Positions 6,001 to 34,275 of a stretch of 64,000 nucleotides of DNA are shown here, piece after piece. Below the pieces are notes generated by a model. It searched no databases, was not told where the DNA came from, and saw only the letters and a program-made list of their open reading frames with translations. A program made the position numbers and the translations under genes. Within the stretch, counting starts at the first letter, position 1. The number at the start of each line of letters is the position of its first letter. The DNA is from an uncultured Candidatus Binatia bacterium (GTDB lineage Bacteria > Desulfobacterota > Binatia > UBA9968 > JAJDTQ01): the NCBI GenBank assembly GCA_965213675.1, contig OZ243916.1, forward strand, positions 3,680,001-3,744,000. The letters are read 5' to 3'.

Positions 6001-9000
6001 ATAGCGGAACCGCACGCCGGTGTCGCGGCTGAGCGCCCGCGACAGGTTGACCTCGAGCTTGACGCTGTCCGCCCCCTCCGGCGCCCGCACACGGTCGGCC
6101 ACGGCGAAGGTCACGAGATATTCATCGTCCACCACCGTGGTCTCGATGCTGTGGTCGCTCGCGTCGCGGGTCACGTCGCCCACCGTGGTGTCGGGGTCGG
6201 CGGCCAACGCGGCGTCGCTGCCGAGCGCGACGGTGACCGTCTCTTCCCTCGGCGTCTCGAGATGGTCGTCGATGGCTTCGAGGGAGAGTTGCACGGCGGC
6301 GCCGCCCGCGCCTTCGCCCTCGAAGACCAGGGTGGGGCTGAGCGTACCAGCGCCCTCCAGGCGCACGCCGGGGTCGGCGGCGTCCTCGTCGCTCACCCAC
6401 TGGAGCCCGTGCGGGAAGTCGTCCCGAGTCACGTCCGCGCCGGAAATCACCAGCGGCACATCCACCCGCTCGCCCGCGCGCAGCGCCCGGCTCAACGCGA
6501 CCGCGAACTCGATGACGCCGCCCGCAATGTCCCGGTCCCGCCATCCGGTGCCCTCGTCGATGCGCGCGGCGCCGCCGGTGCGGGTGAGCGAGACCACGAT
6601 GTCGGAGTCGTCATCGTCGATCACCCCGGTGGCGATGAGGCGAAGCCCGCCGCCCGGGAGCACCGCGTTGGTGGGCTCGGAAAGGAACAGCGCCACCGTT
6701 TCGTCGCTCTCGAGCAGGGTGTCGCCGATGACCTCGACGGTCAGGGTCTTCTCGGTCTCGCCCGGCTGGAAGGTGAGCGTGCCGGGCGGCACGGCCACGT
6801 AGTCCGTCCCCCGCGTGGCGGTGTCGTCGGGGTCGATGTTCCCGTAGTCCACCGTGACGGTGTCCAAGCTCGCGTGGGAGAGGGTCACCGTGAAGTCCAG
6901 GTCGGCGGTGGCGCTGTCGCCCTCGTCGACCCGCCCGCCGCGCATTCTCAGCTTCGGGTCGCTGTCGAGCACATCCAGCGTGATGAGGGGCACCCGCGGT
7001 CCAACGAACCCGGCGTAGTTGCCTTTCCCCTGCACGGTGTTTCTGAACGTCGTGGTGCGCTTCCCGCTCGGGTTGTCCTTGCCATCGTCGACCCCGGTCA
7101 GGGTGACGGTCTGATAGCGGTACCAGTTCGACATCGTGAAGGTGAGGACCGAAGGGCTGAAACGGGCGAATCTGTAGTTCACACCCAGATGGATCTCCAC
7201 ATTGCCACGGTTCGGCGGCGCGTTGAGGCGCACCCTGTAGGTTCCCTTGTGCTCTTTCACATCCCGGGTGTGCGGGTTGTCCGCCTCGTACAGGGTGATC
7301 TTGGTGGGCGTATACGTGATGCCGGGGGTGTCGTTGTCCGCGACTTCCACCGTGGCAAAGTCGGGGTCGGCCGGGAAATAGGCGCGCGCGGTCGAGGCTC
7401 CCCGCACCGTTACCTTGACGCCCCCGGCGGGGTCCGAGCCGCTGGTGTCCCGGGTGGCGATGGTCAGCGCCGCCGACGCCTGGCCCGCGGGGATGGTGAG
7501 CGTGCGGTTGCCTTCGTCGGCCGTCGCGATGCGGTCGGCGGCGCCCGCTTCGGCCACGTTCAGGTTCACCGCAAGGGCGCTCGAGGTCACGAGGTTGCGC
7601 GTCACGGTGAACGCGGCGGCGTTGCCCTCGATGACCTCCGCTGCGTCCGCGCTCACGCTCACCGTCGGGTCGTTGTCGTTGATGCGCACCAGCGCCGTGT
7701 CGCGCGCGTAACCCGGGGGCAGGTTGTCCGGGTCGGCATGCAGGCGGAAGCGTTCCCGCTTCTCGACGACGTTGTCGTTCACGATCGGAATGACGAGATC
7801 GATCTCCGTTTGCCCCGCCGCGATTTCCGCGAACTGCGGATATGTCCAGGCTTCCCGGTAATCTTCCCCCACCTTCGCGTTCAGGCTCTCGAACACGAGC
7901 CGGACCAGCACGTCCCGGTCGAGCGCGCGCGAAAGCCGCAGGGTGATCCGGGCCGCCCCCGCCCCCTCGGACACGCTGTATAGGTCTTCAGAGAAGGTCA
8001 GCAGATATTCGTCGTCCACCACCGTCACGCTGAAATCGGCGGCTGAAGGGTCCACCGCCAGGGTGTCGGGGATGTTGGTGCCGGGCGCGCCGTTCAGCAC
8101 CGTCGCCTGCGCGAGCGCGACGGTCACCGTCTCCTCGCGCGGCGTCTCCAGTTGCAGGTCGGTCGCTTCGACCTCCAGGGCCGCGACCTGCGCGCCGGTG
8201 CCTGCGAACACCACCGTGGGCTGCAGGGTGTCCGCGCCCTCGATGCGGACGCCCGTGCCCGAGACCACCGCCAGCGCAGCGAAATCGTCCGCGCTGACGC
8301 CGGCCCCTGCAATCACCAGCGGGATGTCGACGCGCTCGCCCGCCACCAACGCCCTGGAAAGACCCACCGTGAAGGCCATCCTGCCGCCGGCGACCTCCTG
8401 CGCGCCCGGCGCATCCGGCGTGCCCTCGCCGATGCGCGCCGCGCCCGTGCGCGCGAGGGACACGGTCACCGTGCCGGCCTCATCGTCGGTGAGGGTGACC
8501 CCCACACTGGCGATGGCGGGCGTGCTCGGGGTGTAGCGGCTGCCGTCGCCGTCGGCGGCCGAACCGATGCCGTGCGTGATGGTGGCGCTGCGCGCGCTCG
8601 CATTGACCCGATTGTCGTCTTGACCCTGAACGGCGATGGTCTGCGGCGCGTCCCAGTTCGACGGCGTGAAGGTCAGCGCCTCGGTGCGGGTGTAGGTCCC
8701 GGACGCGTCGGGGCCGTCGAGCTTCACCACCGTGTCGTCGCCGGACGCGACGGTGATGACCACGTTGGACAGCGGCTCGGAATCGAGCACCAGCGTGTAG
8801 TCGGCCGTGCCGCCGCCCTCCGATACCCGGTGCGCGGCCTGGGAGACGGTCACGCCGGCGGTGTCGTCGTCGGTGACACGGACGTTCACGCTGCCGGCGT
8901 TGTCGATAGTGTAGTTGCTGTCCGAAGAGCGTGCGGCGTGGGTGAGGGCCACGGTGCGCGCATCACCCGCGTTGTCGATGGCGTCATCGACGCCGAACAC

Positions 9001-12000
9001 GTGGACGGTCTGCGCCTTGTGCCAGACCTTCGCGCCGCTCGGCGTGAAGGTGAGCGTCTTCTTCGCGCCCGCCGTGCGCACCCCGCCGCCGGCGTTGTTC
9101 ACGAGCGCGCCTGCGCCCGCGGTCACCGTGACCGTGACGTCGCTCGAGGGCGCGGTGCTCAGCCGGATGCGGTACGCGTCCGTGGTGGTGCCGTCCTCAC
9201 TGACGACGGTGGCGGCCGGTTGGCCGGTTTCGGTGAGGATGACGCGGGGGACGGCATCGTCATCGTCCGTGATCGTCACCGTCGCCGAACCGGCCCTGGT
9301 GGTGCCGGCCGTGCCGAGGCCCGAGACGCGATCGAGGTTGCTCGTGACCGCAATGGCGCGGCTGAAGCCGACCGTGAGCGCCTCCAAGTCGCCCTCGTCT
9401 GCGGTGTCCGGCTGCGCAGTGACGGTGAGGGTGGCCACCTGCACCGCGTTCGAGCCGTGGCCGGTGAACACCACTGCCGGCGCGGCGGCGCTGTAGTACG
9501 GCGCGCGGGTGTGCAGCGTCACGCCGCGGTTCAGACCGCTGCCGGATTTGAGCGCGATGACGTAATCCGCCGCGGTCACGCCCCGGCCCGCAACACCGAG
9601 CGGCACCGTCACCGTCTCGCCCGCCACCAGGTTGCGCCCGAGCGTCACGGTCACGTCCGCCGCGTCGCTGCCGTCCTCGCTCACCGTGCCGCCGCCGCCG
9701 ATGGTCACCGTTGTGGGGTCGTTGTCGACCAGCAACCTTGTGAACGTGTGGTGCCTGGTGGAGACCCGGTAGCCGGTGCCCGGGTCGAGCGTCACCCTCA
9801 GCACGCTGTTCGGCTCGTCCACCGCGTCGTCATCGATGGCGACGTCATGGGTGCCGCTTCTCGAACCCGGCGTCAGTGTGGGACCGGTGAAGGTGCCGAT
9901 GTGGGCGGAATGCGCGATGTCGCCCGTCTGGGTGACGGTGAAGCCGATGTCATCGATGTCGGCGCTCAAGGTGTCCTCGGTCTCGAAAAGCAGGGCCACC
10001 CGCTCCTGTCGCATCGTGCCGTTGTCGTCATGGGTTTGACCTTCGGCGACCGCCGAATTCAAGGTCGCGCTCGTCAACGCCACCGTCGGACGCGGGTCGG
10101 CGGTGACCGTGGCCTCCACCGAGGCGATGATGGTGCTGATGGGGTAAGCCGCGGTGGCGGTGGTCACCATATGGGTGATGGTGGTCGAGCCGGCCTGCTT
10201 GCCGGTCACCGTCACCGTTTGCGGCTTGGGCCAGTTGCCCGCGTTGAAGGTCAGGGCGCCGCTCACGACAGCGTTCGCCGGGGTGTCGCTGGTCGGCGTC
10301 ACCACCACCGTGCCACCGGGGTCGCTCTCGAGCACGACGGTATAGCGAACGATGGCGTCGCGGTCGGCCACCGACAGCGTCGTGTCCGACACCACCACCC
10401 CGTGCCCGGCGTCGGTGGTGGTCACGGTCACATCGTCGATGGCGAGCAGGTGGTAGCGGTGGTTGCTGTCCGCGGCCACCGCCGAGGAGTGGGAGAGGGT
10501 GACGGTCTCGCCTGCCGCGTCGCCGTCGTTCACCGCGCGCACCGTGACCGTCTGCGCCGCGCTCCAGTTGCCGGCGTTGCCGGGCGTGAAGGTGAGCGTG
10601 CCCTGGGTGCCCGCCGTGGCGCCGTCGGTGCCCACCGTCACGGCGGTGGGGTCGCTTGACGTCACGGTCACGACGACAGTGGCGCCGGGGTCGGAGTCGA
10701 GCACCAGCGTGTACGTCTTCTCGGCGTCATCGGCGTGCCGCTCGGTCAGCGCCAGGGTCGCGGTGGAGAGGGTCACGCCTTCGGGACCCGCGTCATCGTC
10801 GGTAATCGTCACCGTGGCCGTGCCCGTCGGGGTGGTGCCGGCGGTGCCGGAGCCCGTGGCCCGGTCGAGGTTGCTCGCTACCGCCCGGTCGCCGCTGCCG
10901 AAGCCGACCGTGAGCGTCTCGGCGCGCCCCTCGTCATCGGCGTCCTGCTGCCCGGTCACGGTGAGGGTGGCCACGCGCACCGCGTTCGTGTCGTGGCCGG
11001 CGAACACCACCGCCGGCGCGGCCGCACTGTGGGGATTGGCGGTGTCCAGCGTCACGCCGGCGTTCAGGCTGCTGCCGGTCTTGCGCGCGATGGTGTAATC
11101 GGACGCGGCCACGCCGGCGCCCGACACCACAAGCGGCACCGTCACCGTCTCGCCCGCCACCAGATCGCGACCAAGCGTCACCGTCACCTCCGCCGAATCG
11201 CTGCCGTCCTCGGCCACCGTGCCGCCGCCGCCGAGCGTCACCGAGGTGGCGTCGTCGTCGGTGATGTCCACCGTGGCCGCGTCCGGGCTGCCCACCTCGT
11301 AGCCGGTGCCCGGGCTCACCGTCACCTGCACGCCGTCATTCGCCTCGTCCGTGCTGTCGGCCACGGTGTCCACCGTCCAGGTCGCCGTCCCCGAGATGGG
11401 CACGGTGACCGTGGCCTCGCCCTCGTCATCGTCGGCCACGAAGTCGCCGGTCTCGCTGACCTCCAGGTTGACCGTGAGGCTCGCCCGCGGCACCGGGTCC
11501 GCGGTCACCGTGAAGCTCGCCGCCGTGCCCTCGGTGACCGCCGAACCGCCGGTGATCGTGATCGCCGGCGGCGGTTCCCTGACGGTGAGGGTGAAGGAGA
11601 CCTGGCGCGAGGAATCGTGCTGATCATTGAGGGTCATGGTGAAGGTCTCGTCGGGATCGTACACCCCGTCGGCGCGGGCGCGCAATTCCGTCGTGAACGT
11701 GCGGGTGTCGGTATCAAAGTTTTCGCGCCCAACGCAGAAATCCCAGTTCGGGAGCGCGTGCGGGGTGTCCACCAGGACGCATTCGAACGATTGCGCGGTT
11801 CCGGGGTAATTCGCCCCCAGGATGCCGCTGGTCCACGAGTGCGGGATGTTGATGACCGTGAACGTCTTCGTCTCCCCTTCCCTGATCTCCGTGGAGTCGA
11901 TACTCGGCGCGGGGAAGATCGTGACCGCCACGGACCCGATGTCGGTGCTGATGGGGTAGGCCGTCGTCGGGGTGGTGACCGCATGGCTGAGGGTGGCCGA

Positions 12001-15000
12001 ACCGGCCTGCTTGCCGGTCACCGTCACCTCTTGCGGCATGGACCAGTTGCCCGAGGTAAATGTCAACGCGCCGCTCACGGTGGCGTTCGCCGGCGTGTCG
12101 CTCGTCGGCGTGACGACCACCGTGCCGCCGGGGTCGCTGCGGAGCACGATGTCATAGGTCGTGGTGTCGTCGCCCGCACTGACCCGGATCGTCGTGGCCG
12201 GCACCACCACCCCGTGGCCGGCGTCGGTGACGGTCACACGCACATTGTCGATGTCGATGCCGTGATACGGGTTGCTGCTGTCGGTGGCCACCGTCGCCGC
12301 GTGGCGGAGGGTAACCGTCTCGCCCACCGTGTCGGCGTCGTTCCGGGCGCGCAGGAGGATCACCCTCTTTGCCTGCCAATTGCCGGAACTGCCGTGGGTC
12401 ACGGTAAACGAGCTCTGGTCGCCCGCCTTCTCGATGTCGGCGTCAATCACCACCGCTGTGGTGTCGTCTGAAGTCACCGTGACGACCACATCGGCACCGG
12501 GGTCGGAGGTGAAGGCCAGCGTATACGTCTCATCGAAGTCGGTCTCGTGCAGCTCGGTGAGCTGCACGCTCGCGGTGGAGACCACAACACCGTGGGTGGG
12601 CGGGTCCGTGATGCTGAATACGGCGAGGCTGTCGGTCTCCTCCGCACCGCCGGCGAGCCCGGTCGGCACGAGGGTGCCGATGTCGATATCGACCGTCTCC
12701 GGGCTCTCCTCGCTGCCGTCCGACACCGCGGTCAGGGTGAGCCTGGCGGTGGTCGCCGTCGCGCCGGAGTTGGGCCCGGTGAAGACCACGCGGGCGGTCC
12801 CGCTGTCGAGATTGTTGTAGACAACACCGGCCGCGGTGGCGCCGACCAGGGTGTAATCCGTGCCGCGCGTCGCCGTGCCGGCGAAGGTGAGCGGCACGGT
12901 CAACGTCTCGCCGCTGACCAGGCCGCGGCCGAGGGTCAGGGTAATATCCCGCGTCCGCCCCTCGGCCAGGTCGCCCGAGGCAGCCGAGGCCAGGGTGACC
13001 GTGGTGGGGTCGTCGTCGGTGATGGTCACCGACGCCGTGCCGGTCGGGGTGGTGCCGGCGGTGCCGGTGCCCGTGGCCCGGTCGAGGTTGCTCGCCACCG
13101 CCCGGTTGCCGCTGCCGAAGCCGAGGGTGAGCACCTCCGCCGACCGCTCGTCGTCGGTGTCCGACCGCGCGGTGACGGTGAGCGTCGCCACCTGCACCGT
13201 GTTGGTGGCGTGGCCCGCGAACACCACCGCCGGCGCGTCCGCGCTGTGCGGGGTGGTCGTGTTCAACGTCACGCCCTGGTTCAGGTTGCTGCCGGTCTGC
13301 AGCGCGATGGCGTAGTCGGAGGCGGCGATACCCGGCCCGGCAACGCCGAGCGGCACCGTCACCGTCTCGCCGACGCGGAGGTTGCGGCCGAGGGTCACCG
13401 TCACATCCACCGAGTCGCTGCCGTCCTCCTGCACCACGCCGGTGCCCGCCAGCGTCACCGCGGTGGCGTCGTCGTCGAGCACCGCCACGGTGGCCGTGTC
13501 GCTCGCGCCGCTCGCAACCCGGTAGCCGGTGCCGGGGGGCACCGCCACGGTCACGCCGCCATTGGACTCATCCGTGCTGTCGGCCACCGTGTCCACGGTG
13601 TAGGTCGCCCGGCCCGAGGTCCCGACGGTCACCGACTTGCCGCCCGCATCCTCGCTCGCCACGAAGGCGCCGCTCGCGGCGACGTTCAGGTTGACGGTCA
13701 GGTTCGCCCCCGGCGCCGGGCTGGCGGTCACCGTAAAGCTCGCCGCCGTGCCCTCGGTGACCGCAGTGCCGCCGCTGATGGTGATCACCGGGCGCGGGTC
13801 GGCGGTGACCGTCACCGCCACCGGGTCGATGTTGGTGCCGGCCGGATAGTCCGTCGTGGCGGTGGTCACCGTATGGCGGAGGGTGGTCGCCCCCTCGCCC
13901 TTGCCGGTCACCGTCACCGTCTGCGGCACGGACCAGTTGCCCGGGGTGAACGTCAGCGCGCCGCTCACCATCGCCCGGGACGGGTGATCGCTCGCCGGGG
14001 TCACCACCAGCGTGCCGCCGGGGTCGCTCTGCAGCACCAGGGTATAGGTCGCCGTCTCGTCATTCGCCGCCACCGACCGGGTCGACTCCGACACCACCAC
14101 CCCGTGGCCGGCGTCGGTGGTGGTCACGGTCACCGCGTCGATGGCGATACCGTGATAGGGGTGGGTGCTGTCGGACGCCACCGCCGCATTGTGGGTGACG
14201 CGGACGCTCTCGCCGGCCGCGTCGCCGTCATTCACCGCCCGCACCGTCACCGTCCGCACGTCGTTCCAGGTGCCCGCAATGCCATGGGTGAAGGTGAGCG
14301 TGTCCTGGTCGCCCTCCGTGTCGCCGTCGGTGTCCACCCGCACGGCGCTGTTGTCGGCGGAGGTCACGGTCACCACCACCTCCGCGCCCGGGTCGTTGTT
14401 CAGCGCCAGCGTGTAGGTCTTCTCCGCGTCGCTCGGGTGCAGCTCGGTGAGCGCGAGGCTCGCGGTGGAGACCGTGGCCCCGTCCTCCGCCGGGTCCTCG
14501 ATGCTGAACCCGGCCAGGCTGTCAGTGCTGTCGACACCGCCGTCAAGGCCGGTGGGAACGAGCGTGCCGAGGCCGATATCGACGGTCTCCGGGGTCGCCT
14601 CTGCCGTCCCGTCCCTGACCGCCGTCAGGGTGAGGGTAGCGGTGGTCGCCGTCGCCCCGGAGTCCGGGCCGGTGAAGACCACGCTCGCCGTCCCGCTGTC
14701 GAGCTGGTTATAGGCGACGCCGGCCGCCGTCGCACCGACCAGGGTGTAATCCGTGCCGCGCACCGCCGTGCCGGCGAAGGTGAGCGGCACGGTAAGCGCC
14801 TCGCCCTGCACCAGCCCGCGGTCGAGGGTCACGGTAATCTCCCGCGTCTGCCCCTCGCCCAGATCGCCCGAGGCGGCGGCGAGCACCACCCCCGTCGGAT
14901 CATTGTCCGTAACCCGTACGACCAGTTCGCGCGCCTTCTGGTGCTGGAACCTCACATCCGCCGAAGTGGCCGTGTGGGTGACCGAGACCGTCTTGCCCGG

Positions 15001-17211
15001 GTCGTCGGCCTCGTCGTCGGTCGCCGTCAACGTGACCGTCTGGCCCGTCTGCCAGTTCGACCGGGTGAAGGTGAGCGTCTTCGTCGCCGCCTGCGTCGGC
15101 GAGCCGGCCGTGCTCACCCTGGCGCCATCGCCGGCGGCGACCGTCACCGTCACATTCTGCGAGGGCCGTCCGGTCGAGCTGTCAAACTGCACGCGGTAAT
15201 TCGCCGTCCCGCCCTCGGTCAGCGCCAGGCTGCGCGTGGAGACCACCAGCTTGTCGGCGTCGACCACACGAAAGAGCGCGCCGCTCTGCCGCCGGTCGGG
15301 CTCGAGGCCGCCGCCGAGATTGGTCAGCGCGGCCGAGGCCAGCCCGCGAAAGTTCACCGTAATGTTTGCATCGGTGCTGTCGTTGGGCGCCCGCTCGGCC
15401 CGGGCGGTCAGGTGCACTGTGGCCGATCGGGGCGTATCGGCACCGCCGGTGAACTCCACGGCATAGACGGCCGAGTTCGGCGGCGTGCGCTGCCCGGCCA
15501 GTTCCGCACTGCCCGGGCCAAACAGCCACACGCCCTCGGCGAGCTTTTGGGTGTCGGAGTTGCGCGCGGCACTGTCCGCCCCGACGGCGTGGACCACCAC
15601 ATCGCGGCGACTGGCCGCTCCGGAGAGAAAATCCCTCGCCCCGGTGGCGAAGCGCAGCGGCACCCGCACCCGCTCGCCGGCGACGAGCTCCCGCCCCAGC
15701 TCCACCACCAGCACACCGGTTCGGCTCTCCACGCCCTCGGTCATCGAGCGGGAACCGCGGAGCGCCACGGAGGTTGGCTCGTCGTCGACCACCTCGATGC
15801 TGCCCGCGCTCCGGTCCGACACCCGGTAGCCCGTGCCGGTGGTGGGGGTCACCGTCAGGGTGCCGTTCGGCGCATCGCCGGCCACATCGATGCTCGCCGC
15901 CGTGATCTCGACGCTGCCGCTGGTCGGCACCACCACCGAGCCCGTCGACGCTGCCGCATGGCCGCGTGTGCCCGACACCTGGTAGTTCACCGTCACCGGC
16001 GCGGCCGGGGGCACGAGCAGACGGACGGTGAAGGTCGCCGCCGTGCCCTCGGGGACCGAGTCCCGCTTCGCCTCGACCCGCACCTCCGGCGTTTCATCGT
16101 CGAGCAGGCGGAGGGACGTATCGGTGAAGGTGGCGCCGGCCAGGGTCCCGGTCAGGCTGATCGTCTCTTCCGGCTCGCTCAGGGAATCATTCACCGGCGC
16201 CAGCGGGAACTCGACATAGCCGCTCGTTGCACCCTGGCGGAGGGTGATCGTCTGATCCGGAACATTCGCGTAGTCGGTGACCTCCTCCGCACTGTCGCTG
16301 GCCTCGCCCACCCGCACCGTCACCACCTGGTCCGTGTCGAACCGGGATCCATCGTCGATGGTCGCCGTCACCCGCACCGTCTTCGTCCCGCCATTCTCCC
16401 GCACGGCGTCCTGCACGCCGGCGCTGTCCGTATCCGCATCCACCGTCAGGGTGATGGCCGACGGCGACCCGTCATCGTCCACCACCACCACACTCGCCCG
16501 GTCGGAATCGGCGCCCACCGCATAGCCGGCGCCGCCGGCAAGGGTGACCGAGATCGCGCCCGCGGCCTCGGTGGTGGTGTCGTCATCGGTCTCGACCGCG
16601 ATCGTCGCCTGGTCCTCGCCGGCCTTCAGGATCACCTGCCGGTTGCCGGTCTGCCCCGCCGCCGCGACATCGCCTTCCTGCGCGACGCCCAGCGCCACCG
16701 TCAGATCCCGCGCCGGGGCGAAGTCGGCGCTCAGCGTGAACTCGGCATCGTTGCCCTCGCTCACCTCCGTCCCCGCCGCGCGCACGCGCAGCGTCGGCTC
16801 GGCCCCGTCGATGAGCACCTTCGCGACGGAGCGACTCACATCCACGGCATAGCCGTCGCCCGGGAACAGCGTCGCCCGCACCGAGCCGTCGGTCTGGTGG
16901 CTGTCGTTCTCCTCGGTCTGGATCCGCAGCGTCGCGCTCGCGCTGCCGCCCGGCAGCACCAGGCTGTACTCCCGAATCGCGGTCGCGGACACATAGCTGC
17001 CCTGTTGCGTGACGCGGACCTTCAGCGGCAGGTCGTTCTCCACCGTGGCATCGGCGCCGAAGGTGAACACCACCGTCTCGCCCTCATGCACCGACGCGGC
17101 CGCCTCGACGCCGACCGTCACCGGATCGTTGTCGACGATCGCCACCTTCGTCGCGGCGCTCGCGCCCACCTTCGTATGCGCCCCCGCCGTCAGCACCAGC
17201 GTGAAGTGCTC
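1..17211 (-). CDS. Giant repetitive surface protein/adhesin, C-terminal-side part (continues 17084..34018 after a +1 frameshift; runs off the window edge)
   Basis: Manual translation at several points (e.g. 17211 EHFTLVL, 11640 TMTLNDQHDSSRQVSFTLTV, 1500 PIISVALPSGGG) gives the same repeat types as the upstream ORF (LTFTPxNWxxxQTVTV, xxDDD linkers, Calx-beta-like). The track lists no terminated ORF in this frame, consistent with an open frame to base 1 (5,737 codons). Confidence 0.9.
1874..3013 (-). repeat. Three tandem near-identical 375-bp (125-aa) Ig-like/Calx-beta-like modules inside the giant gene
   Basis: Unit boundaries (g/a)tgtc(g/a)tcgtcggt recur at ~1874, 2249, 2624 and 2999. Shadow ORFs end at 2083, 2458 and 2833 (period 375). 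Confidence 0.92.
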
Positions 17212-20200
17212 GCTCGAAGTCAGGGACACTGTCATCCAGCGCCCCGACCGTGATCACCTGCCGGCTCGCCCCGCCCGGGGCGAAGGTCAGCGTGCCGCTC
17301 GCGCCGCTGTAGTCGCCTTCCCCGGCGGTGTCGCCGTCGCCGGCCGGAGCAAAGGTCACCGTCGCCGGCAGCAGCGAAGTGGCGCTGCCGCCCTGCGCAA
17401 CGACGACCCCCACCGTGCCGCCCTCGCTCACCCGGTACTGCCCGCTCTGGAAGCCGTATTGCGGCAGGTCGGCGGCGTCGGTGATGGTGCCCACCCCCTC
17501 GTAGTCGGTGGGGTGCAGGAGACCGTGGGTGGACGAGACCAGGCGCACCGTGAACCGGTGGTCCGACTCGTAGACGTTGTCGTCCACCGTCGGCACGGAG
17601 ACCGTGCCGCTGGTCTGCCCCTCGGCGATGGCGACCGCCCCGCCGCGCGACCCGCGAAAATCAGCGGGCGCGGTCGCCCGCGCATGCACCGCGCCGCCGG
17701 TGCCTTCATGAACGGTGTAGCGCACCGTCACACCGCCCGCCGGCGCCGCCTCGGGCAGCGACACCGTAAAGACCATCGCCTCGCCCTCGGCCGCGGACGC
17801 GTCCGAGATGGCGACCCCGACATCATTGTCCAGCACCGTCAGCACCGCCGAGTGGCTCGCGCCCGACGCCGCCACCGCGCCGGTCAGTTGTGTGGCAAGC
17901 GTGGCGTCGGAGAGGTCGCCGAGGGAAACCGTGAGCGTATCGTCCGTGCGGTTGCCGTCATCCAGCCCCGTCGCGGCGAGCAGGACTTCGGCCACCCGCT
18001 CGCTGCCCGCGCCGCCGGTGACGCGCACCTTCGGCGCCGCGGTGGCCGCATCGTGCAGCGACACCCCGGCGCCGGTCGCCGACAGCACCTGCACATGCGG
18101 CTGCGACCCGCCCGGCAGCGACAGGCCGCTGGTCGTCGCGAACGCCAGCGGCACCTCTACCACCTCGCCGGCCACGAGGTCGCGCTCCAGCAGCACCACC
18201 ACCGACCCCGTGTCGCCCGGCGCCTCCTCGAGCAGGCGCACATCGCCGCCAGCCCTGAGCGCGACCGTGAACGGGTTGTCGTCATCGAACAGCGTCAGCG
18301 TCGCCACGTTGTCACCAGCGGCCGGGGTCACCACCTCGCCGAGGTTGGTCGCCAGCCCGCCGGCGGCCAGATCGCCGAGGGTGACCGTGAAGCTGTCGTC
18401 GTCGGTATCGCCGTCGTCCTGGCCCGTCGCGGCCATGGCGACCGTCGCCACCTGCTCGCTGCCGGCGCCGCCGGTGAAGCGCACCGTCGGCGTCGTCGTG
18501 GTCGCGCCGTGCAACGTCACCCCCGTGCCGGCCGCCGACAGCACCTGCACATGCGGCTGGGCCCCGCCCGGCAGCACCACGCCGGTGGGCGAGGCGAAGG
18601 CCAGCGGCACCTCCACGATCTCGCCCGCCGCAAGGTCGCGCTCCAGCGTCACCGTCACCGATGCCGTGTCGCTCGGAAGCTGCTCGACCAAGCTCAGGTC
18701 GCCGCCGCCGGCCAGCGACACCTCGAACGACTCCTGGTTGTCCACCAGCGTCAGCCGCGCCTGGTTGCTGCCGCCGGTCGCCACCGCGCCGCCCGACACC
18801 GTCGTCCCGAGCGCCACCGCGGCGAGGTCGCCGAGCCCGACCGTGAAGGTATCGTCGCTCAGATTGGCATCCACGGTGGCCGTCGCCGCCAGCTCGACCA
18901 AAGCCACCCGCTCGACGCCGGCGCCGCCGGTGAAGCGCACCGTCGGCGTCGTGGTGGTCGCACCTCGCAGGGTCACGCCGGTGCCGCGCGCCGAGACCGC
19001 GACATGCGGCGCCGCCGCGCCGGGCAGCGCCACGCCGTCGGAGGTGGCAAAAGCCAGCGGCACATCCACCATTTCGCCCGCCGCGAGGTCGCGGCCAAGG
19101 GTCACCGTGACCTGCGCCTTGTCGCCCGGCGTCTGCTCGCGGAGGCGAAGGTCGCTGCCGCCCGCGAGCGACACCGGGGTCGGGAGGTTGTCCACCACCT
19201 GAACGCTCGCCGAAGCGCCGCCGTAGCGGGGCGCGAGCGTCGCCGTCACCGCGCCGTCCGGCCGGTCCGCGGGGAAGGCCTTCGTGTTCACGCTGAACCG
19301 CTTGCTGCCGCCCGCCGGCACGATGACCTTGCGGGTGAGGAACTGGCCGGCAGCCACCACATCGCCGCCATCGCCGATGCGCACCTCGACCGCCACGTCG
19401 CCGCCGAGGGCATTGGTGGCGCTCACCGTGAATGCGGCCGCGTTGCCCCCGACCACGCGCGCCGCGACCGGCGCGACGGTGAACGCCGCCCCGGCGATGC
19501 GCGCCGGCGCCGCACCCACCGTCACCCCAACCAAGGCGACGCCATACTCGGTGCCGCCGGAACCGCCGTAATTGCTGTCGGCCGAGGACACGTCGTGGGT
19601 CACCGTCGCCCGCCCCGGCGAGAGCCCCGACACCGCAATCGTCTTCTCCGTGTTCCACTCGTTCGGCTGGAAGGTGACCGCCGCACCGCCCCGGAGCACC
19701 GCGCCGCTGTCGGCCACCCGCGGGGTCACGGTCACCGGGTGCGTCGGCCGGCTCAGGAGGCGCAGCGTGTACCCGGCCGTGGCCCCTTCGGACAGCTCGA
19801 GCGCACGCGTCGATGCCATCACCCCATGCCCGGCGTCGCGGTGGGTGACGGTCACCGACGGCGCGCTGGAAACCCCCGGGTAGCCGGTCACCGCATGGGT
19901 GAGGGTGACGGTGCTGTCCTGGATCACATCCGCATCGGCGAGGGCGGTGACCGCCACCGACTGCGCCTCGCTCCAGATCCTATCCCCGCGCGTGGTGAAG
20001 GTGAGCTGCGCCGGTTCGACCCGCACCCGGGCGGGATCGCTGGAGGTGATGTCCACCGTCACATCCTGGCCGGGGTCGCTGCCGAGCCAGAGGAAGTAAC
20101 GCCCCGGCGGGCCGTTCTCCAACACCCGCAAGAAGTTGTGCGAGACCCGCACCCTGGGGGCGCCGGAGGCGGGCACCACCCGGTCGCGCAACTGGATGAA

Positions 20201-33300: not shown

Positions 33301-34018
33301 TGAGGCCTCCGCTGAGGTTGGTCGCCAGGGTGGTATCGGCGAGGTCGCCGAGCGCCACCGTGATCGTCTCGTTGCCCGTGTCGCCGTCGTCGCGCGTGGT
33401 CGCCGTGAACGTGACCGTCGCCGTCTGCTGGGTGCCCGCGTCCGCGCCGGTGATCTTCACCTTCGGCGACCAGGTTGCGCCGCCGATTGCGGTGCCAGCC
33501 TCGCCACTGATGGACACGCCGGCGCCGCTCGCGCTCACGGTGTAGTCGAAGTCCGAGCTGCTCCGCCGGTCGGCGGTGCCGCCGATCACCAGCGGAATCT
33601 CCGCGATCTCCCCGCCGGCGAGGTCGCGGTCAAGGGTCAGCGTCACCGTTGCGGTGCTGCTCGTGTCCTCCTCGGTGAGCGTGGTGTCGGGGGCCGCAAG
33701 CGTCACCGTGACGGGGGCGCTCGTCTGCGCTTCAGTCCAGGGCGTCCACCCGGCCAGCAGCACCAAGGCAACCCCCAATGTTGCAAAAGCCTTCGCGGGA
33801 ATGACGTCTCGTAAGTTTTCCGATAATCCTACTCTGCGGCTCGGCTCGGCTCGGCTCGGCTCGGCTCGGCTCGGCTCGGCTCGGCTCGGCTCGGCTCGGC
33901 TCGGCTCGGCTCGGCTCGGCTCGGCTCGGCTCGGCTCGGCTCGGCTCGGCTCGGCTCGGCTCGGCTCGGCTCGGCTCGGCTCGGCTCGGCTCCATTGTGG
34001 ACTGAGCATTAATTCCAT
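17084..34018 (-). CDS. Giant secreted adhesin-like protein, N-terminal part (Sec signal peptide; Calx-beta and Ig-like repeats); frameshifted at 17212
   Basis: 5,644-aa ORF. GAGGGG SD-like motif 7 nt upstream of ATG 34018. Hydrophobic segment AFATLGVALVLLAGW followed by TEA|Q. T/V/A/G/D-rich repeats with Calx-beta-like motifs (e.g. SDASAAEGEALVFTVTL...VPTVDDNVYESD). The last ~42 aa are out-of-frame sequence. Confidence 0.93.
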   Translation of the reverse strand: MELMLSPQWSRAEPSRAEPSRAEPSRAEPSRAEPSRAEPSRAEPSRAEPSRAEPSRAEPSRRVGLSENLRDVIPAKAFATLGVALVLLAGWTPWTEAQTSAPVTVTLAAPDTTLTEEDTSSTATVTLTLDRDLAGGEIAEIPLVIGGTADRRSSSDFDYTVSASGAGVSISGEAGTAIGGATWSPKVKITGADAGTQQTATVTFTATTRDDGDTGNETITVALGDLADTTLATNLSGGLTAGGGANRATLLIEDDDKTGAAVEVSLARTNMGDVTEGGSATAEFTVTLSRVLIASEEVVVPLFVSGSRVTSQDVDIQAKAGPALNTSVTVSSAGTLAWTVEFTDGAQTATLELTPKDDIADESDETAVVALGSDAQFDTEGRTTMDASPHATANRFEVTLKDNDTNNVVYSLALSPAQIKESEFVGGGTVTLTLDPKNATFLGAGNRTAGASQKQGKYLTGKQLNAAGRALITLSGAPSGLAISAVRLLARDATGVHGIPANYGHRSAEVDLSYSGDALTADGAVKINVDKRLLRYRGDPGDGNQVVYGYDHASVLGDADDLAADFTIKARPTVNIGPVFVSVTEGTDASAEFTVTLSAVLGSDVVIPISLREVKDGATAGEDYTAPNPSSVTISAGATTGTFTIPILDDDATEDSELTFVSIDAASLPADVRVGSASTASLIIHDDDIVTVSFTEESADVEEGESLQVTVELSEARDTDTPIEIWLLGDNATVAADFVDPVTGDPINGEHADFSLTIAAGATTASATVMTVDDDILEGLERILARIINLDTGVERGANPTLTINILDDDGVVLTESDGSTAVVESGATDSYQVQMVEANPFLITDFIATAGEGLQVSFGGNQPAGTATLNFTGLGGFSDGLSSPRKIDVSAVDDDIDNPGGPRTATITHKTTRGFERMIIEDITVAITDDDPTTVTLASTASGNLTEGQTRDFTITLGRGLVSGETLTVPLTFGGTATRGTDYTMTGAAADGVAYNNLDSGAANVVFTGPNTGETATTATITLTAAADDTLESTPETVDIGFGTLASTGLDGGTSETDSLDEFSIEDTDGVTPSTASLALTELHPTDAEKTYTLALHTDPGAEVVVTVTSRDPSVVEVDTDSAMAGNQSTLTFTDGNAGNWDEPQTVTVRAVNDGDVATETVIISHAAAVASDNNNPYHGIDIDDVTVTATDAGHGVILSESMLSVQGSDEAKTYEVVLKSRPNYPVTVTPTSSAAANAAVSGALTFSTSNWNIPQAVTVTGKEDGSSTISHAVTSTDSNYVIAVAGSVTVTVDTRQVLDLRFQSTRVSETLNTRVRHRPNRASTDLLVTATGATSGFILPGGTSRLTITGEGVTESDYTLASRVNYHSFSHPYTDNSKFDINDDDVDESNETLTVGWQNLPPGFRAGTTATLTIYDDDPTSVTLAGAGTVKEDGSDGADITVTLGRNLIAGESVTAPLAVSGTGITASDYEIALKPGSSVNTGVKLSTSAPHSASAPAVVFTGQDSNTVQVATLTVTAQQDADNEGSSEALTVDFGKRNRAVMSNLDRELDDSFVQVMGREGTTSTGTATVTITDDDFTPGVIIKESDDETIVSDDGGSSTTTESYTVELGSAPTANVTITVTAGDGVQVNTVGGTTGKTQTLTFTPAGSGIWSTAQTITVTGVDDDIDNAGDARTVTIAHVATSNDATYAIPDAGSVSVTVTDDDTAGVTVGTNAVTVTSGGEDSYTLRLTSEPVGAVAITPTSDDDKVVGIKAIEGTRAKWAVFDAENWQVPQTVTVEGVAGGGPVNVTHAVTYAAGGGYGTDLSIDPVSVTVAAATKPVLNLSLAGDVMAEGEWADLTLSVTGATTQRLLVDTANLLSVSGVNAADYRLDLPARIAFRAPDYAHTVRLFVLPDDTDEQNETLTVGFGSGFPATLAKGTEATVTVIDGNPTPVTFAVPGEDELVEGDETRVTVTLGRGLLAGETVTVPLTVAGTGVDGDDYTLTLDAGASSSGVSLSASPPYSADQPAVVFTGSDDAAVTTATLALAAIEDGAAESREAFTLWMGTIDSNLDRETGTGATGTVPRGGAAFIQLRDKVAPKVAPGDGTPRVRVSPTAMTVVENGPPGRYHLWLGSDPGQTVTVDITSGDAGRVRVEPAQLTFTTRGETIWSEAQAVEVTALPDADAIQGSNVTLTHAVTGYPGVSSAPAVTVTHRDAGHGVMTSTRALQVSEGASAEYTVRLKSRPTHAVTLTPRVTDSGAVLKAGAAVTFQPNEWNTEKTIAVSGLSPGRATVSHEVSSTDSNYGGSGGTVRGVALVGVTVGAAPARIAGAAFTVAPAAASVVGGNPAAFTVSATNALGGDVAVEVSIDDGGDVVAAGQFLTRKVIVPAGGSKRFSVGTKSFGQDRPDGAVTATLATRYGGASARVAVADNIATPVSLAGGGDLRLREQTPSDKAQVTVTLGRDLAAGEVVEVPLAFATTDGVALPGAAQPHIAVTARGTGVTLQGASTTAPVVRFTGGAGTERVATVEMAATATRDANLTNDTFTVGLGDLAAATLGTTVSGGAVATGGSNQARLTLVDNQEAFEVSLAGGGDLSVVEQLPSDTASVTVTLERDLAAGEIVEAPLAFASTSGVVLPGGSQPHVQVLSASGTGVTLQGATTTTPTVRFTGGAGTEQVAQVQIAATNQDDGDTSDDTFTVGLGDLAAGGLATNLSEAVTTAAGDNVATLTLFDDDNPFTVALTGGSDVRLFEEAPGDTGSVVVTLERDLVAGEVVEVPLAFSTTSALSLPGQSQPHIQVLSATGAGVSLHDAATTAPKVRFTGGAGREQVAEVQLGATGRDDGNRTDDTFTVSLGNLSDAGLATQLTGTVTASSASSAPTLTVIDNDVGVALSDASAAEGEALVFTVTLPNAAPAGGVAVRYTIAGGTGGAAYSRATAPDDFRGARGGAVVIAQGRTSGTLSVPTVDDNVYESDHRFTVRLVSSTHGPLHPTDYEAVGTIIDDADLPQYGFQSGQYRVSEGGTVGVVVAQGGSATSLLPATVTFAPAGDGDTAGEGDYSGASGTLTFAPGGASRQVITVGALDDNVPDFEEHFTLVLTAGAHTKVGASAATKVEIVDNDPVTVGVEAAASVHEGETVVFTFGADATVENDLPLKVRVTQQGSYVSATAIREYSLVLAGGSASATLRIQTEENDSHQTDGWVRATLFPGDGYAVDVSRSVAKVLIDGAEPTLRVRAAGTEVSEGNDAEFTLSADFAPARDLMVALGVAQEGDVAAAGQTGNRQVILKAGEDQATIAVETDDDTTTEAAGAISVTLAGGAGYAVGADSDRASVVVVDDDGSPSAITLTVDADTDSAGVQDAVRENGGTKTVRVTATIDDGSRFDTDQVVTVRVGEASDSAEEVTDYANVPDQTITLRQGATSGYVEFPLAPVNDSLSEPEETISLTGTLAGATFTDTSLRLLDDETPEVRVEAKQDSVPEGTAATFTVRLLVPPAAPVTVNYQVSGTRGHAAASTGSVVVPTSGSVEITAASIDVAGDAPNGTLTVTPTTGTGYRVSDRSAGSIEVVDDEPTPVALRGSRSMTEGVESRTGVLVVELGRELVAGERALVQLRFATGARDFLSGAANRRDVIVHADGADSAALAADTQKLAEGVWLFGPSSGKLTGQRTPPNVAVYAVEFTGGTDTPRSATLHLTARAERAPNDSTDANITVNFRGLASAALTNLGGGLEPDRRQSGALFRVVDADKLVVSTRSLALTEGGTANYRVQFDSSTGRPSQNVTVTVAAGDGARVSTAGSPTQAATKTLTFTRSNWRTGQTVTLTATDDPADDPGKTVSVTHTATSADVRFQHQKARELVVRVTDNDPTGVVLAAASGDLGEGQTREITVTLDRGLVQGEALTVPLTFAGTAVRGTDYTLVGATAASVAYNQLDSGTASVVFTGPDSGATATTATLTLTAVRDGTEEATPETVDIGLGTLVPTGLAGGVDTTDSLAEFRIVDSSAGIAITESGGSTVAGEDGTEDTYEVVLSAEPTHDVTVTVTSGAGVEVGTTGSPAAAATKTLTFTPANWDDAQTVTVHAVDNQVDDVSRREVEISHAATSVDPFYRAMVASVLAVAVIDDDATAVTLSTSAGDIAEDGSNKVVTVALGRALVAGERLTVPLTFGGAATRGTDYAVRVQEGQAASGVTHTNLASGAASVMFTGGAGASPSASFTLESMADEIDEGASETVSVALGALDGDSGRGLDGGASGSGGVSFSITDDDTAGVTVGAGRVTVASGAAASYTLRLTSAPVGAVAITPTSEDPNTAGIQANKNGSTGRLIFDAGNWQEPQTVTVEGVAPGGPVSIGHAVTYAAGGGYGTDLSIDPVVVTVTAAAKPVLNLSLAGGALREGAWRDVTLRLTGATGRVLVDTANLLSVSGVTAADYRLDLPARIAFRAPDYARTYQLWALPDDVDEQNETLTIGFGSGFPATLAKGAEATVTVIDGNPTAVTFALAGGDDLVEGDGTSATLTLGRGLRAGETVTVPLVVAGTGVDSSDYTLTLDAGASSSGVSLAISAPYSSHQPAVVFPGSDDAVVTTATLSLAALEDGAAETREAFTLWMGTLDSNLDLETGTGARGTAARGSAAFIQLRDRVVPASGAPRVRVSHNFLRVLENGPPGRYFLWLGSDPGQDVTVDITSSDPARVRVEPAQLTFTTRGDRIWSEAQSVAVTALADADVIQDSTVTLTHAVTGYPGVSSAPSVTVTHRDAGHGVMASTRALELSEGATAGYTLRLLSRPTHPVTVTPRVADSGAVLRGGAAVTFQPNEWNTEKTIAVSGLSPGRATVTHDVSSADSNYGGSGGTEYGVALVGVTVGAAPARIAGAAFTVAPVAARVVGGNAAAFTVSATNALGGDVAVEVRIGDGGDVVAAGQFLTRKVIVPAGGSKRFSVNTKAFPADRPDGAVTATLAPRYGGASASVQVVDNLPTPVSLAGGSDLRLREQTPGDKAQVTVTLGRDLAAGEMVDVPLAFATSDGVALPGAAAPHVAVSARGTGVTLRGATTTTPTVRFTGGAGVERVALVELAATATVDANLSDDTFTVGLGDLAAVALGTTVSGGAVATGGSNQARLTLVDNQESFEVSLAGGGDLSLVEQLPSDTASVTVTLERDLAAGEIVEVPLAFASPTGVVLPGGAQPHVQVLSAAGTGVTLHGATTTTPTVRFTGGAGSEQVATVAMAATGQDDGDTDDDSFTVTLGDLAAGGLATNLGEVVTPAAGDNVATLTLFDDDNPFTVALRAGGDVRLLEEAPGDTGSVVVLLERDLVAGEVVEVPLAFATTSGLSLPGGSQPHVQVLSATGAGVSLHDAATAAPKVRVTGGAGSERVAEVLLAATGLDDGNRTDDTLTVSLGDLSDATLATQLTGAVAASGASHSAVLTVLDNDVGVAISDASAAEGEAMVFTVSLPEAAPAGGVTVRYTVHEGTGGAVHARATAPADFRGSRGGAVAIAEGQTSGTVSVPTVDDNVYESDHRFTVRLVSSTHGLLHPTDYEGVGTITDAADLPQYGFQSGQYRVSEGGTVGVVVAQGGSATSLLPATVTFAPAGDGDTAGEGDYSGASGTLTFAPGGASRQVITVGALDDSVPDFERALHAGADGGGAYEGGRERRDEGGDRRQRSGDGRRRGGRVGA
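22087..28906 (-). repeat. Large intragenic direct repeat, copy A (~6.8 kb)
   Basis: Paralogous to 14499..21304. Near-identical over ~22150-25070 and more diverged elsewhere. Confidence 0.93.
33789..33806. repeat. Half REP-like palindromic element (GCCTTCGCGGGAATGACG) inside the adhesin signal-peptide region
   Basis: Matches the right half of the ATTCCCGC..GCGGGAATGAC elements at 36758 and 43152. Encodes VIPAKA in frame. Confidence 0.55.
33838..33992 (-). repeat. Simple sequence repeat (GAGCC)31, putative phase-variation tract
   Basis: 31 perfect GGCTC units on the + strand. They lie between ATG 34018 and the signal-peptide h-region and translate as (EPSRA)n. Confidence 0.97.
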
Positions 34019-34119
34019 TTGTCAACCCCTCGGCCAAGTCTCTTCCGCCGTGCTCCAATGCGGACCCGGGCTGGAAGTTGCACGATGCCTTCCGTCCCTT
34101 GATCGGGTTGTTCTGTGCA

Positions 34120-34275
34120 GTCATAATGAAACCGTCCCAATCTATAACGAAACATCGTCATGGAAAATTCGGTGCTCGCAATGCCATTATCATGGCAATT
34201 TCCGTCCGACCACAAAGTTAAGTATACATAACTAGTTGGAAGTAAACAACTTATTTTGCACTGTTATGTACACAT
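34120..34275. promoter_or_regulatory. AT-rich intergenic regulatory region upstream of the giant gene
   Basis: Sharp GC drop with short direct repeats: ATAA(T/C)GAAAC x2 at 21-bp spacing and GTA(T/A/C)ACA x3. Confidence 0.45.

Follow-up and report, generated by a model that had tools for sequence, protein, structure and literature searches.

The window, i.e., the whole stretch of 64,000 nucleotides analyzed here, carries a gene for a giant Calx-beta repeat protein on its minus strand (Table 1). The preliminary description counted it as a single gene of 34 kb. In this assembly, the gene is interrupted and appears as two ORFs, divided by an additional C at position 17212 (reference: an internal paralogous copy), and it measures approximately 38.8 kb from ATG 34018, with its terminus beyond the window. 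Pfam detected only Calx-beta in the N-terminal 1499 and the C-terminal 1607 amino acids. The 5′ end of the gene contains a long, uninterrupted tandem repeat of the type found in contingency loci, the unit of which is not a multiple of three (31 × 5 bp). A regular expression matched exactly 31 GAGCC units from 33992 down to 33838, and Tandem Repeats Finder reported a repeat at 33837–33992 (period 5, 31.2 copies, 100% matches, score 312), in agreement with the 31 perfect units counted before. Chance origin is no issue for a perfect repeat of 155 bases. The 4.53-Mb genome contains no more than five long tracts whose unit length is not divisible by three, among them (GAGCC)31, the sole GAGCC tract in this genome. 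The tract reads (EPSRA)n in all three frames, none of which contains a start or stop codon within it, and the encoded peptide is neutral in charge.

Table 1. Sequence features of the tract and of the adjoining gene (n, number of repeat units)
Feature	Position	Strand	Remarks
Candidate upstream promoter, TTGTTT-17-TATACT	34221..34249	−	Seen in the letters; consensus scan without call
Long leader ORF, frame B, MTAQNNPIKGRK...	33732..34124	−	Starts at ATG 34124; 130 aa at n = 31
GAGGGG, Shine–Dalgarno-like	34026..34031	−	7 nt before ATG 34018
TTGACA box	34020..34025	−	Identical in 10 of 11 cassettes of the genus; TTTACA in the eleventh
ATG, short leader start, frame A, MELMLSPQW-	34016..34018	−	Shares the frame of the gene at n = 31
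TAA closing frame C	34009..34011	−	No start after it; n = 0 mod 3 is OFF
CACAAT, −10-like hexamer	33994..33999	−	20 nt after TTGACA, 1 nt before the tract
ATG adjoining the tract, frame B	33993..33995	−	No Shine–Dalgarno sequence; second start of the preliminary description
(GAGCC)31 pentanucleotide tract	33838..33992	−	Tandem Repeats Finder, regular expression, frame rebuild
TAG, out-of-frame stop	33829..33831	−	Reached by ATG 34018 when n = 2 mod 3 (rebuilt locus)
Signal peptide core KAFATLGVALVLLAGW, aa 76–91	33728..33793	−	Likely cleavage between TEA and QTS after aa 97; judged by eye
ORF 1, giant Calx-beta repeat protein, 5644 aa	17084..34018	−	ORF translation, Pfam
ORF 2, same protein continued, open frame of 7359 aa	1..17235	−	ORF translation; end outside the window

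Start codons and reading frames around the tract

Two frames upstream of the tract carry start codons. Frame A is entered at ATG 34018 and again at ATG 34009, and is closed just upstream of the former by TGA 34024–34022, which lies inside the TTGACA box. The position of ATG 34018 is occupied by GTG in one locus of the same genus and by ATA in a paralogous cassette of this genome. Frame B is entered at ATG 34124, the start of a leader of 44 codons, and TTG 34058, 34037, and 34025 share this frame; at n = 31, it crosses the tract and ends at TGA 33734–33732. ATG 34124 is homologous to the Shine–Dalgarno-preceded ATG leader starts of four further cassettes in the genome (see below). No ATG or GTG was found on the minus strand between the tract and the hydrophobic (h-)region of the signal peptide, and the sole in-frame canonical start there is a TTG, 59 nt past the tract and already within the h-region. 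The position of the tract between ATG 34018 with its ribosome binding site and the h-region, as reported earlier, was corroborated. Translation is predicted to run through the tract, which follows the start codon and precedes the body of the protein, with starts upstream only. The putative signal peptide, delimited by eye, has the unusual length of 97 amino acids, and from its position N-terminal to the hydrophobic core the (EPSRA)n peptide would be expected to depart together with it.

The locus was rebuilt in silico with n = 26–36, and ATG, GTG, and TTG starts in the last 230 nt were scored for a frame open into the gene. With n = 28, 31, or 34 (n = 1 mod 3), ATG 34018 and ATG 34009 are open, which, like ORF 1, is in accordance with the gene having been described as in frame with ATG 34018 at n = 31. 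With n = 27, 30, 33, or 36 (n = 0 mod 3), no open ATG, GTG, or TTG is found in this section. The OFF state proposed for n = 30 and 33 agrees with these frames, as ATG 34018 meets TGA 33734–33732 and frame C is shut by TAA 34011–34009. With n = 29, 32, or 35 (n = 2 mod 3), frame B is open into the gene. For n = 29 and 32, the stop at TAG 33831–33829 and the opening of ATG 33995 had been recognized correctly, but ATG 33995 is not the only start to come into frame; ATG 34124 does so too. The start assignment has to be reconsidered, as the leader conserved in the family is the long one (ATG 34124), and it is out of frame at n = 31.

Related cassettes in the genome, the genus, and other phyla

The search for further (GAGCC)n tracts in the genome, which had been suggested before, yielded no second GAGCC tract, but revealed four loci with tracts of 8-base units (8 to 45 units) in a homologous 5′ cassette, namely (ATCGCCGG)n with 45, 32, and 11 units and (GTCGAGCC)8. 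These cassettes comprise a leader with Shine–Dalgarno sequence and ATG, TTGACA, the tract, a basic linker, and a signal peptide, in this order, and precede genes for Calx-beta/LRR, He_PIG, and unnamed secreted proteins. The 450 nt upstream of the tracts with 45 and 32 units are common to both loci save scattered differences. Of the four leaders, one is in frame, two are not, and the fourth is shut by a TGA just before the tract. In the region of approximately 85 amino acids following the tract, none of the nine members of the octamer type contains an ATG, and differences are most frequent at third and least frequent at second codon positions (third/first/second, e.g., 30/17/11). The post-tract region is therefore translated, from a start located before the tract.

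Seven of the 28 genomes of the genus contain (GAGCC)n. When TTGACA has to be present upstream, the repeat is found in at least 95 stretches belonging to many phyla, and cassettes of this type front surface-protein genes of many unrelated bacteria. The leader ORF enters the tract in all nine foreign cassettes read in detail. Eight of them have a plain Shine–Dalgarno sequence with ATG, and the ninth is frameshifted; in one cassette, AGGAGG is followed after 5 nt by ATG, four codons, and (GAGCC)52, and the leader is one unit out of frame. Among 75 loci, 38 have an ATG open into the tract (shuffled sequences: 21.6 ± 3.7, maximum 35 in 300). The leader is in frame with the gene in 4 and out of frame in 13 of the 17 loci with long ORFs, and short leaders are in frame in 5 and out of frame in 7 of 12 loci. 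In both groups, the ORFs remain intact, up to more than 1600 codons. At the level of sequence comparison, such a mixture with intact ORFs is the signature of phase variation. As descent or transfer links the loci compared here, counts across them overstate independence. Where flanks were at least 90% identical, n differed in six of seven pairs (two further pairs were dropped as the same DNA fetched twice). No other metagenome contigs with the flank of this locus were found; the flank-bearing contigs represent one sample. The case for a switch thus gains from the homologues in and out of frame, from the different n between near-identical flanks, from the translated, start-less post-tract region of the sister cassettes, and from the stops in the two wrong frames.

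That the tract plays no regulatory role is highly improbable in our view. It might be a hypermutable passenger in a long n-region, and its neutral peptide, open in all frames, would suit this, or it might serve as a homology handle for the exchange of paralogous 5′ ends, as several loci per genome have the same unit and 5′ cassettes that are nearly identical, which would permit recombination between them. However, a passenger should tend towards multiples of three units or decay, whereas the tracts are perfect, long, with as many as 62 units, and frequently out of frame although the ORFs are intact. Both wrong frames also retain stops past the tract.

In some relatives, the gene has a start of its own beyond the tract (100–270 nt in two loci of the same genus and in Firmicute loci). 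The two same-genus loci encode a lipoprotein with its own ATG approximately 270–280 nt past the tract. In three loci of human-gut Firmicutes read in detail, the gene for the secreted protein is on the opposite strand, and in the one locus measured the small upstream ORF that bears the tract ends approximately 100 nt before the start of this gene. Several loci show tract-ATGA junctions, in which stop and start overlap. In such an arrangement, n would set the stop of the small ORF and act via attenuation, polarity, or translational coupling, for which the GCAGA pentamers in the leader peptide of pil1, as presented in PMC3894217, are a precedent. A separate leader ORF followed by a gene with its own ribosome site and start is found in the relatives from the genus and the Firmicutes, but the tract ORF of the window continues into the signal peptide and is not followed by a second start. 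This mechanism fits the relatives better and is highly improbable for the window.

Promoter-like sequences ahead of the tract

A conserved order of an A-rich stretch, TTGACA, and a −10-like hexamer precedes the tracts. The profile of the TTGACA-anchored columns displays A at approximately 0.5 at positions −9 to −5, G at −4 to −2, C at 0.65 at −1, and T at 0.42 at +6, which we take to be a classical extended −35 element with a proximal UP element. In 49 of 73 loci, 5–8 nt separate the end of the −10-like hexamer from the tract; TATAAT occurs three times, and TACAAT and CATAAT several times each. In frame B of the long leader, the TTGACA box reads Leu-Thr. The constraint seems to act at the DNA level, as TTG, ACA, and, in the −10 box, ATA are rare codons for a genome of 66% G+C.

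These observations, together with an ATG directly after the tract in several loci, would also fit a role of the tract in gradual control, in which the box is a working promoter and the tract, as the first section transcribed, tunes transcription, mRNA stability, or ribosome loading by its length. Translation would start after the tract, and the frame would be irrelevant, analogous to the promoter/5′-UTR repeats of hmw1A/hmw2A of Haemophilus influenzae described in PMC8262952 and PMC12721329. In the window, however, no usable start follows the tract, and the start-less regions of the sister cassettes are translated. Both in the window and in most loci whose −10 sequence is strong, TTGACA and the −10-like hexamer are 20 nt apart, which is outside the usual −35/−10 spacing of 16–18 nt, and the consensus scan called no minus-strand promoter at the locus. 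Moreover, the loci with a strong −10 sequence mostly lack the short leader, yet retain the long leader with Shine–Dalgarno sequence and ATG. Gradual control is therefore considered unlikely. If the box fires, the mRNA would start at the tract and leave off both starts, which would speak against a translational switch and for gradual control or a leader-peptide mechanism. The candidate promoter at 34221–34249, which sits in a block of 38%–44% G+C (34101–34250; genome 66%), would place both start frames on the mRNA.

A probable translational switch and its known counterparts

The explanation we favor, with a probability of roughly 0.6, is that (GAGCC)31 acts as a slipped-strand contingency switch on translation of the opa kind. 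The mRNA would start upstream, probably in the AT-rich block near the candidate promoter, and would carry two start-bearing frames ahead of the stop-free and start-free tract, beyond which the export signal has no usable start of its own. Because the tract separates the sole usable starts from the export signal, gain or loss of a single unit, presumably by slippage in this population, would turn the protein on, low, or off. As assembled (n = 1 mod 3), ATG 34018 with its GAGGGG ribosome site would yield the giant Calx-beta protein. With n = 2 mod 3, the long leader from ATG 34124, which has a weak ribosome site, and ATG 33995 would be used, probably with lower expression, and with n = 0 mod 3 the gene would be reached by no start. 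Ribosomes in a wrong frame would halt at TAG 33831 or TGA 33734. Points against this explanation are ATA in place of ATG 34018 in the paralogous cassette, the position of the long leader out of frame at n = 31, the genes of some relatives with their own start past the tract, the unusual length of the signal peptide, and the interruption of the gene at 17212. The three states of the preliminary description are supported in part, with regard to the architecture and the stops in both wrong frames, but its start assignment calls for correction, and the promoter-like box before the tract limits the verdict.

More tentatively, and with somewhat more doubt than confidence, the locus may be one copy of a portable cassette that spread across many phyla and was joined to unrelated surface-protein genes, with the promoter-like box as part of the mechanism. 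Its elements would be the A-rich stretch, TTGACA, and the −10-like box, then a tract with units of 5 or 8 bp that begins 19–36 nt past TTGACA, and finally an export leader that has stops in the two wrong frames. The embedded box could, for example, keep the tract slipping as an internal promoter or open complex, or add a second layer of expression beside the frame switch. If true, this would be a two-layer stochastic switch, undescribed for any contingency locus. The locus had previously been put forward as a candidate for an undescribed surface system, which is fair for the cross-phylum cassette, but not for the mechanism, which belongs to the opa or leader-peptide type of simple sequence repeats (SSRs).

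In lic1/lic2-type loci of H. influenzae, a tetranucleotide tract behind several ATGs in different frames gives rise to strong, weak, and off states, as the preliminary description proposed for the window. The locus shares with them the upstream ATGs in more than one frame, the use of two starts being a proposal here. The repeat unit has another length, and neither the organism nor the class of protein is the same. For H. influenzae, SSRs with tetra-, penta-, hepta-, and octanucleotide units are documented in PMC2651432. The 7-bp repeats of hmw1A/hmw2A, with graded expression, lie between promoter and coding sequence; unlike in the window, the gene there has its own start after the tract. In pil1 of Streptococcus gallolyticus, the length of the repeat alters the frame and length of the leader, and attenuation is involved. 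Its pentanucleotide repeat sits in a small leader ORF ahead of an operon for a surface structure, much as in those relatives whose gene carries a start of its own, whereas the leader in the window is fused to the gene.

The closest counterpart is opa of Neisseria, in which paralogues carry 2 to 30 CTTCT units, with lengths differing widely between paralogues and strains according to PMC5320596. As in opa, a pentanucleotide tract (CTTCT/CTCTT in opa) separates the start codon from the mature protein, whereby the frame would decide between ON and OFF, and a multigene family of surface proteins has one tract per gene. Membership in the Opa (opacity) family was rejected, since Pfam shows Calx-beta only and no match to that family in the N-terminal 1499 and C-terminal 1607 amino acids; the locus would work like opa, but its protein, an unrelated Calx-beta giant, is not an Opa family member. 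In contrast to opa, the unit is GC-rich and encodes a hydrophilic extension of the n-region instead of the hydrophobic core, the tracts reach 31–62 units, two frames bear starts, a conserved promoter-like box precedes the tract, and the cassette is found across phyla.

Reading frames across the tract and the giant gene

The repeat tract of the window lies on the minus strand at the 5' end of a giant Calx-beta gene (coordinates in the table). It is preceded by GAGGGG-TTGACAA-ATG-GAA-TTA-ATG-CTC-AGT-CCA-CAA-TG and directly followed by GCAGAGTAGG... The first 100 residues of the ORF opened by ATG 34018 comprise MELMLSPQW, S-R-A-(EPSRA)x9-EPS, RRVGLSENLRDVIPA, KAFATLGVALVLLAGW, and TPWTEA/QTS. The locus was rebuilt with 26 to 36 repeat units (n), and every ATG, GTG, and TTG in the 230 nt before the tract was translated. 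With n = 1 mod 3, the gene was open from ATG 34018 and ATG 34009, and with n = 2 mod 3, a second frame was open. No frame was open with n = 0 mod 3; the one in register ended at a TAA without a later start. The frame arithmetic of the preliminary description is correct, and the two stops it had placed behind the tract, a TAG and a TGA, were recovered. ATG 33995, which it had named as the start of the second frame, is open, although it is not the sole one, since ATG 34124 opens this frame as well. Between the tract and the hydrophobic core, neither ATG nor GTG is present in the window. A Tat signal at SRRVGLS was ruled out by eye, the hydrophobic core beginning 14 residues further on. The N-terminal 139 amino acids gave a single NCBIfam match ("anti-sigma," 16.2 bits against a cut-off of 100), which was rejected, and for the stretch 33500-34400 Rfam gave nothing at E values up to 1.

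Coordinates of the features (window positions; G000:C1, other positions in the same genome)
Feature	Position	Remark
ATG, second frame	34124	44-codon leader, MTAQNNPIKGRK...STM
ATG, gene frame	34018	opens a 5644-aa ORF
TAA	34011-34009	ends the frame at n = 0 mod 3
ATG, gene frame	34009	
ATG, second frame	33995	
(GAGCC)31	33992-33838	minus strand, 31 perfect units
TAG	33831-33829	stop behind tract
TGA	33734-33732	stop behind tract
Tandem repeats in giant gene	25514-26763, 17916-19176, 1874-3012	periods 375 and 456 nt, 2.7-3 copies
Internal copy	~24829	near-identical to frameshift region
No Logan contig	17221-17237	4/4 runs
Extra C	17212	GAG-C-GAG
Overlap of the two ORFs	17084-17235	
Second ORF	1..17235	continues the repeat protein
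Octamer locus x45	G000:C1:800358-800722	(ATCGCCGG)45
Octamer locus x32	G000:C1:2407385-2407645	same octamer
Octamer locus x11	G000:C1:3050133-3050225	same octamer
Octamer locus x8	G000:C1:1134042-1134108	(GTCGAGCC)8
126-aa ORF	G000:C1:801321-801701	upstream of x45 cassette, same orientation; ...GVRFSDSEWKKVREAAQSHGITPAEFVRKKILALV...
22-C run	G000:C1:399035-399056	near 3' end of a 244-aa ORF

The single 34-kb ORF described before did not hold: relative to the near-identical internal copy, one extra C splits the gene into two overlapping ORFs. The protein extends past the window, ends about 38.8 kb from ATG 34018, and has a length of roughly 13,000 residues; at both of its ends, Pfam identified Calx-beta domains only. 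Because no Logan contig covers the stretch next to the frameshift in any of four runs (one sample of one study) and the contigs reaching 17211/17212 go on as a paralogous copy, the frameshift may be an assembly error, though a coverage hole proves nothing. Besides tandem repeats, the gene carries large internal duplications; about 7.6 kb upstream of the frameshift, the protein stretch surrounding it is found again. A search for orthologues of the N-terminus gave domain-level matches only (33-49% identity), in 1 of 40 related genomes.

Related cassettes in the genome, the genus, and other phyla

A search of the 4.53-Mb genome for perfect repeats found a single GAGCC tract and four further long tracts with a unit length not divisible by three, all of them octamers. 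The four octamer tracts stand before genes for secreted proteins. All five loci have one 5' layout in common: a Shine-Dalgarno site with an ATG; a leader of 41-50 codons with an invariant TTGACA read as Leu-Thr; the tract, beginning 19-36 nt 3' of TTGACA; a basic linker and a signal peptide; and a secreted protein with Calx-beta plus LRR, He_PIG/Big_9, or no Pfam family. Among the octamer loci, one product has He_PIG/Big_9 domains, one has Calx-beta plus LRR, and two have no Pfam family assigned. Of the four leaders, that of x45 alone runs in frame into its gene, across 360 nt of tract. Those of x32 and x11 are out of frame, and that of x8 meets a TGA immediately before the tract. In an alignment of the window with the x8 cassette, the leader ATG of x8 corresponds to ATG 34124 of the window, and an ATA stands opposite ATG 34018. 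The x45 and x32 loci are the same over about 450 nt upstream of the tracts save for scattered differences. By eye, the 126-aa ORF upstream of x45 resembles a protein of the ribbon-helix-helix or mobilisation type. The run of 22 C, which is followed at about 170 nt by a small ORF for a secreted protein, is possibly another contingency tract.

Tracts of at least five GAGCC units occur in 7 of the 28 genomes of the genus, this one included, and octamer tracts in two; the other GAGCC copy numbers are 6, at least 7 (a contig end cuts the tract), 12, 23, 24, and 62. Upstream sequence is available for 11 cassettes of the genus; TTGACA precedes the tract by 19-36 nt in 10 of them, and the remaining one has TTTACA. 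One of these loci has GTG-GAA exactly at the position of ATG-GAA in the window, and another has an ATG one base later that is in frame through 24 units into the signal peptide. At two same-genus loci, the tract is followed by a lipoprotein gene that has an ATG of its own about 270-280 nt away. Among 300 other genomes sampled from the phylum, none contained five or more units; the tract, therefore, does not follow phylogeny.

With one genome per species, the pattern TTGACA-N18-36-(GAGCC)4 matched at least 95 stretches; as TTGACA was part of the pattern, this number says nothing on the generality of the box outside the genus. The 80 matches listed were labeled Pseudomonadales, Chromatiales, Acidobacteriota, Gemmatimonadota, Nitrospirales, Entotheonella, Latescibacterota, Binatia, Myxococcales, Poriferihabitaceae, Alpha- and Betaproteobacteria, and gut Firmicutes such as Gemmiger formicilis. 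GAGCC cassettes also occur in records labeled Gammaproteobacteria; in these and in the Acidobacteriota, Gemmatimonadota, Nitrospirales, Entotheonella, Poriferihabitaceae, Alpha- and Betaproteobacteria, and gut Firmicute records, the export leader is near-identical. The left flank of the window tract plus two units had no match in metagenome contigs. In the literature searched, neither a GAGCC/EPSRA cassette nor any repeat switch of sponge symbionts or uncultured symbionts was found.

Evidence for translation through the tract, and the promoter-like box

The octamer-type cassettes and their foreign counterparts have an export leader of about 85 residues after the tract in common (ALPASSWWRRLGRSASRPESS...LLCLPLLLGLAAPAAAQ/T), found in L037, L077, L080, L081, L109, and L117 from other genomes and in the octamer loci. 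Differences within it fall on third, then first, then second codon positions (30/17/11, 30/19/12, 33/23/12, and so on), and it is therefore read as protein in the frame of the gene. None of nine aligned members has an ATG in this region; a translated region without ATG requires a start before the tract. Its DNA identity across phyla of about 81% (49 differences in 261 bases) suggests transfer. The region lacks a start codon, and no Pfam or NCBIfam match was obtained for it (NCBIfam query, the octamer-type 89-aa pre-region). In 9 of 10 members, its +1 frame contains an overlapping small ORF of 12-13 codons (MVAPPRALRLPA*).

All nine foreign cassettes read in detail have a leader ORF into the tract, eight of them with a plain Shine-Dalgarno site and ATG. 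Short leaders of 9-11 codons, as in the window, start with ATG or GTG at -1 to +5 nt from the end of TTGACA in 29 of 75 non-redundant loci, and ATGs open into the tract at 38 of the 75, compared with 21.6 ± 3.7 in shuffles (maximum 35 in 300). Relative to the gene, 4 of 17 long leaders are in frame and 13 out, and of the 12 short leaders, 5 are in frame and 7 out. The genes behind the tracts are open for hundreds to >1600 codons, and both wrong frames meet conserved stops soon 3' of the tract. The gene frame coincides with that of the TGA within TTGACA in about one third of the loci, which is no signal. For tract lengths, nine pairs of loci with 60-nt flanks at least 90% identical on both sides were compared, and two were dropped as the same DNA. 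In six of the seven remaining pairs n differs (28/32, 10/4 twice, 35/22, 12/10, 41/20). All the loci counted in this section are relatives, so none of these counts are independent trials.

Columns anchored on TTGACA are A-rich from -9 to -5, followed by G, with C at -1 and T at +6. In 49 of 73 loci, 5-8 nt separate the end of a -10-like hexamer from the tract behind it (TATAAT three times, TACAAT and CATAAT several times each; CACAAT in the window). Since TTG, ACA, and ATA codons are unusual in G+C-rich genomes, the constraint looks to act at the DNA level. If the box were a promoter, RNA would begin at the tract and all upstream starts would be left off. However, the spacer between TTGACA and the -10 box measures 20 nt in the window, as it does in most of the strong cases, and frequently has an internal dyad; a consensus scan of 33600-34500 called no minus-strand promoter and one plus-strand site only; and loci with a strong -10 box keep the long leader. 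Spacers of 19-20 bp are found in MerR-type promoters. The 20-nt spacers with a dyad in the best -10 cassettes (L048, L052, L074, L081, and others; e.g., GACAGGGGATTTCCCCTGTC) recall activator-dependent promoters with over-long spacers.

The gut Firmicute loci have the secreted-protein gene on the opposite strand, past a small ORF that bears the tract; the gene has a start of its own, and on the far side of the tract another TTGACA faces it. L054, L069, and L116 of this group carry inverted GCTTGACA...TGTCAAGC boxes on both tract sides, so that promoter-like elements face the tract. Their secreted-protein gene is on the GGCTC strand, and in L116 it starts about 100 nt past the small ORF. Whether internal promoter, regulatory site, or part of the slippage mechanism, the box near the tract is the main unexplained feature and a concrete puzzle, testable in principle.

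A proposed translational switch and its known counterparts

A slipped-strand switch acting on translation, with start codons in two frames and three n-dependent states, is the best-supported mechanism (probability about 0.6). The gene would be ON through ATG 34018 when n = 1 mod 3; n = 2 mod 3 would probably give weaker expression through ATG 34124/33995, and n = 0 mod 3 would turn the gene OFF. A switch of this kind appears to control not only the Calx-beta surface protein but also at least four more secreted proteins of the genome. To our knowledge, simple-repeat phase variation has been described almost exclusively in cultured pathogens and commensals of animals. If the cassette switches, stochastic surface variation would be a general tool of host-associated and environmental bacteria, and the cassette would be a ready marker for their variable surface proteins as well as a source of silent "frameshifted" giant genes in genome annotation. 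Calx-beta domains also build the sponge aggregation factor (PMC5400394), which makes variable display of such domains by symbionts of interest.

Their relatedness aside, the cassette loci show the pattern known for opa paralogues (PMC5320596). The window locus would work like opa, but its protein is outside the Opa family; the switch logic also recalls lic1, to whose family the protein does not belong either. The arrangement in the gut Firmicutes is similar to the leader-peptide switch at pil1 in Streptococcus gallolyticus (PMC3894217). The mechanism is known; what is new is its setting in an uncultured bacterium, in front of a protein of about 13,000 residues, with very long GC-rich tracts and a cross-phylum cassette that includes a promoter-like box.
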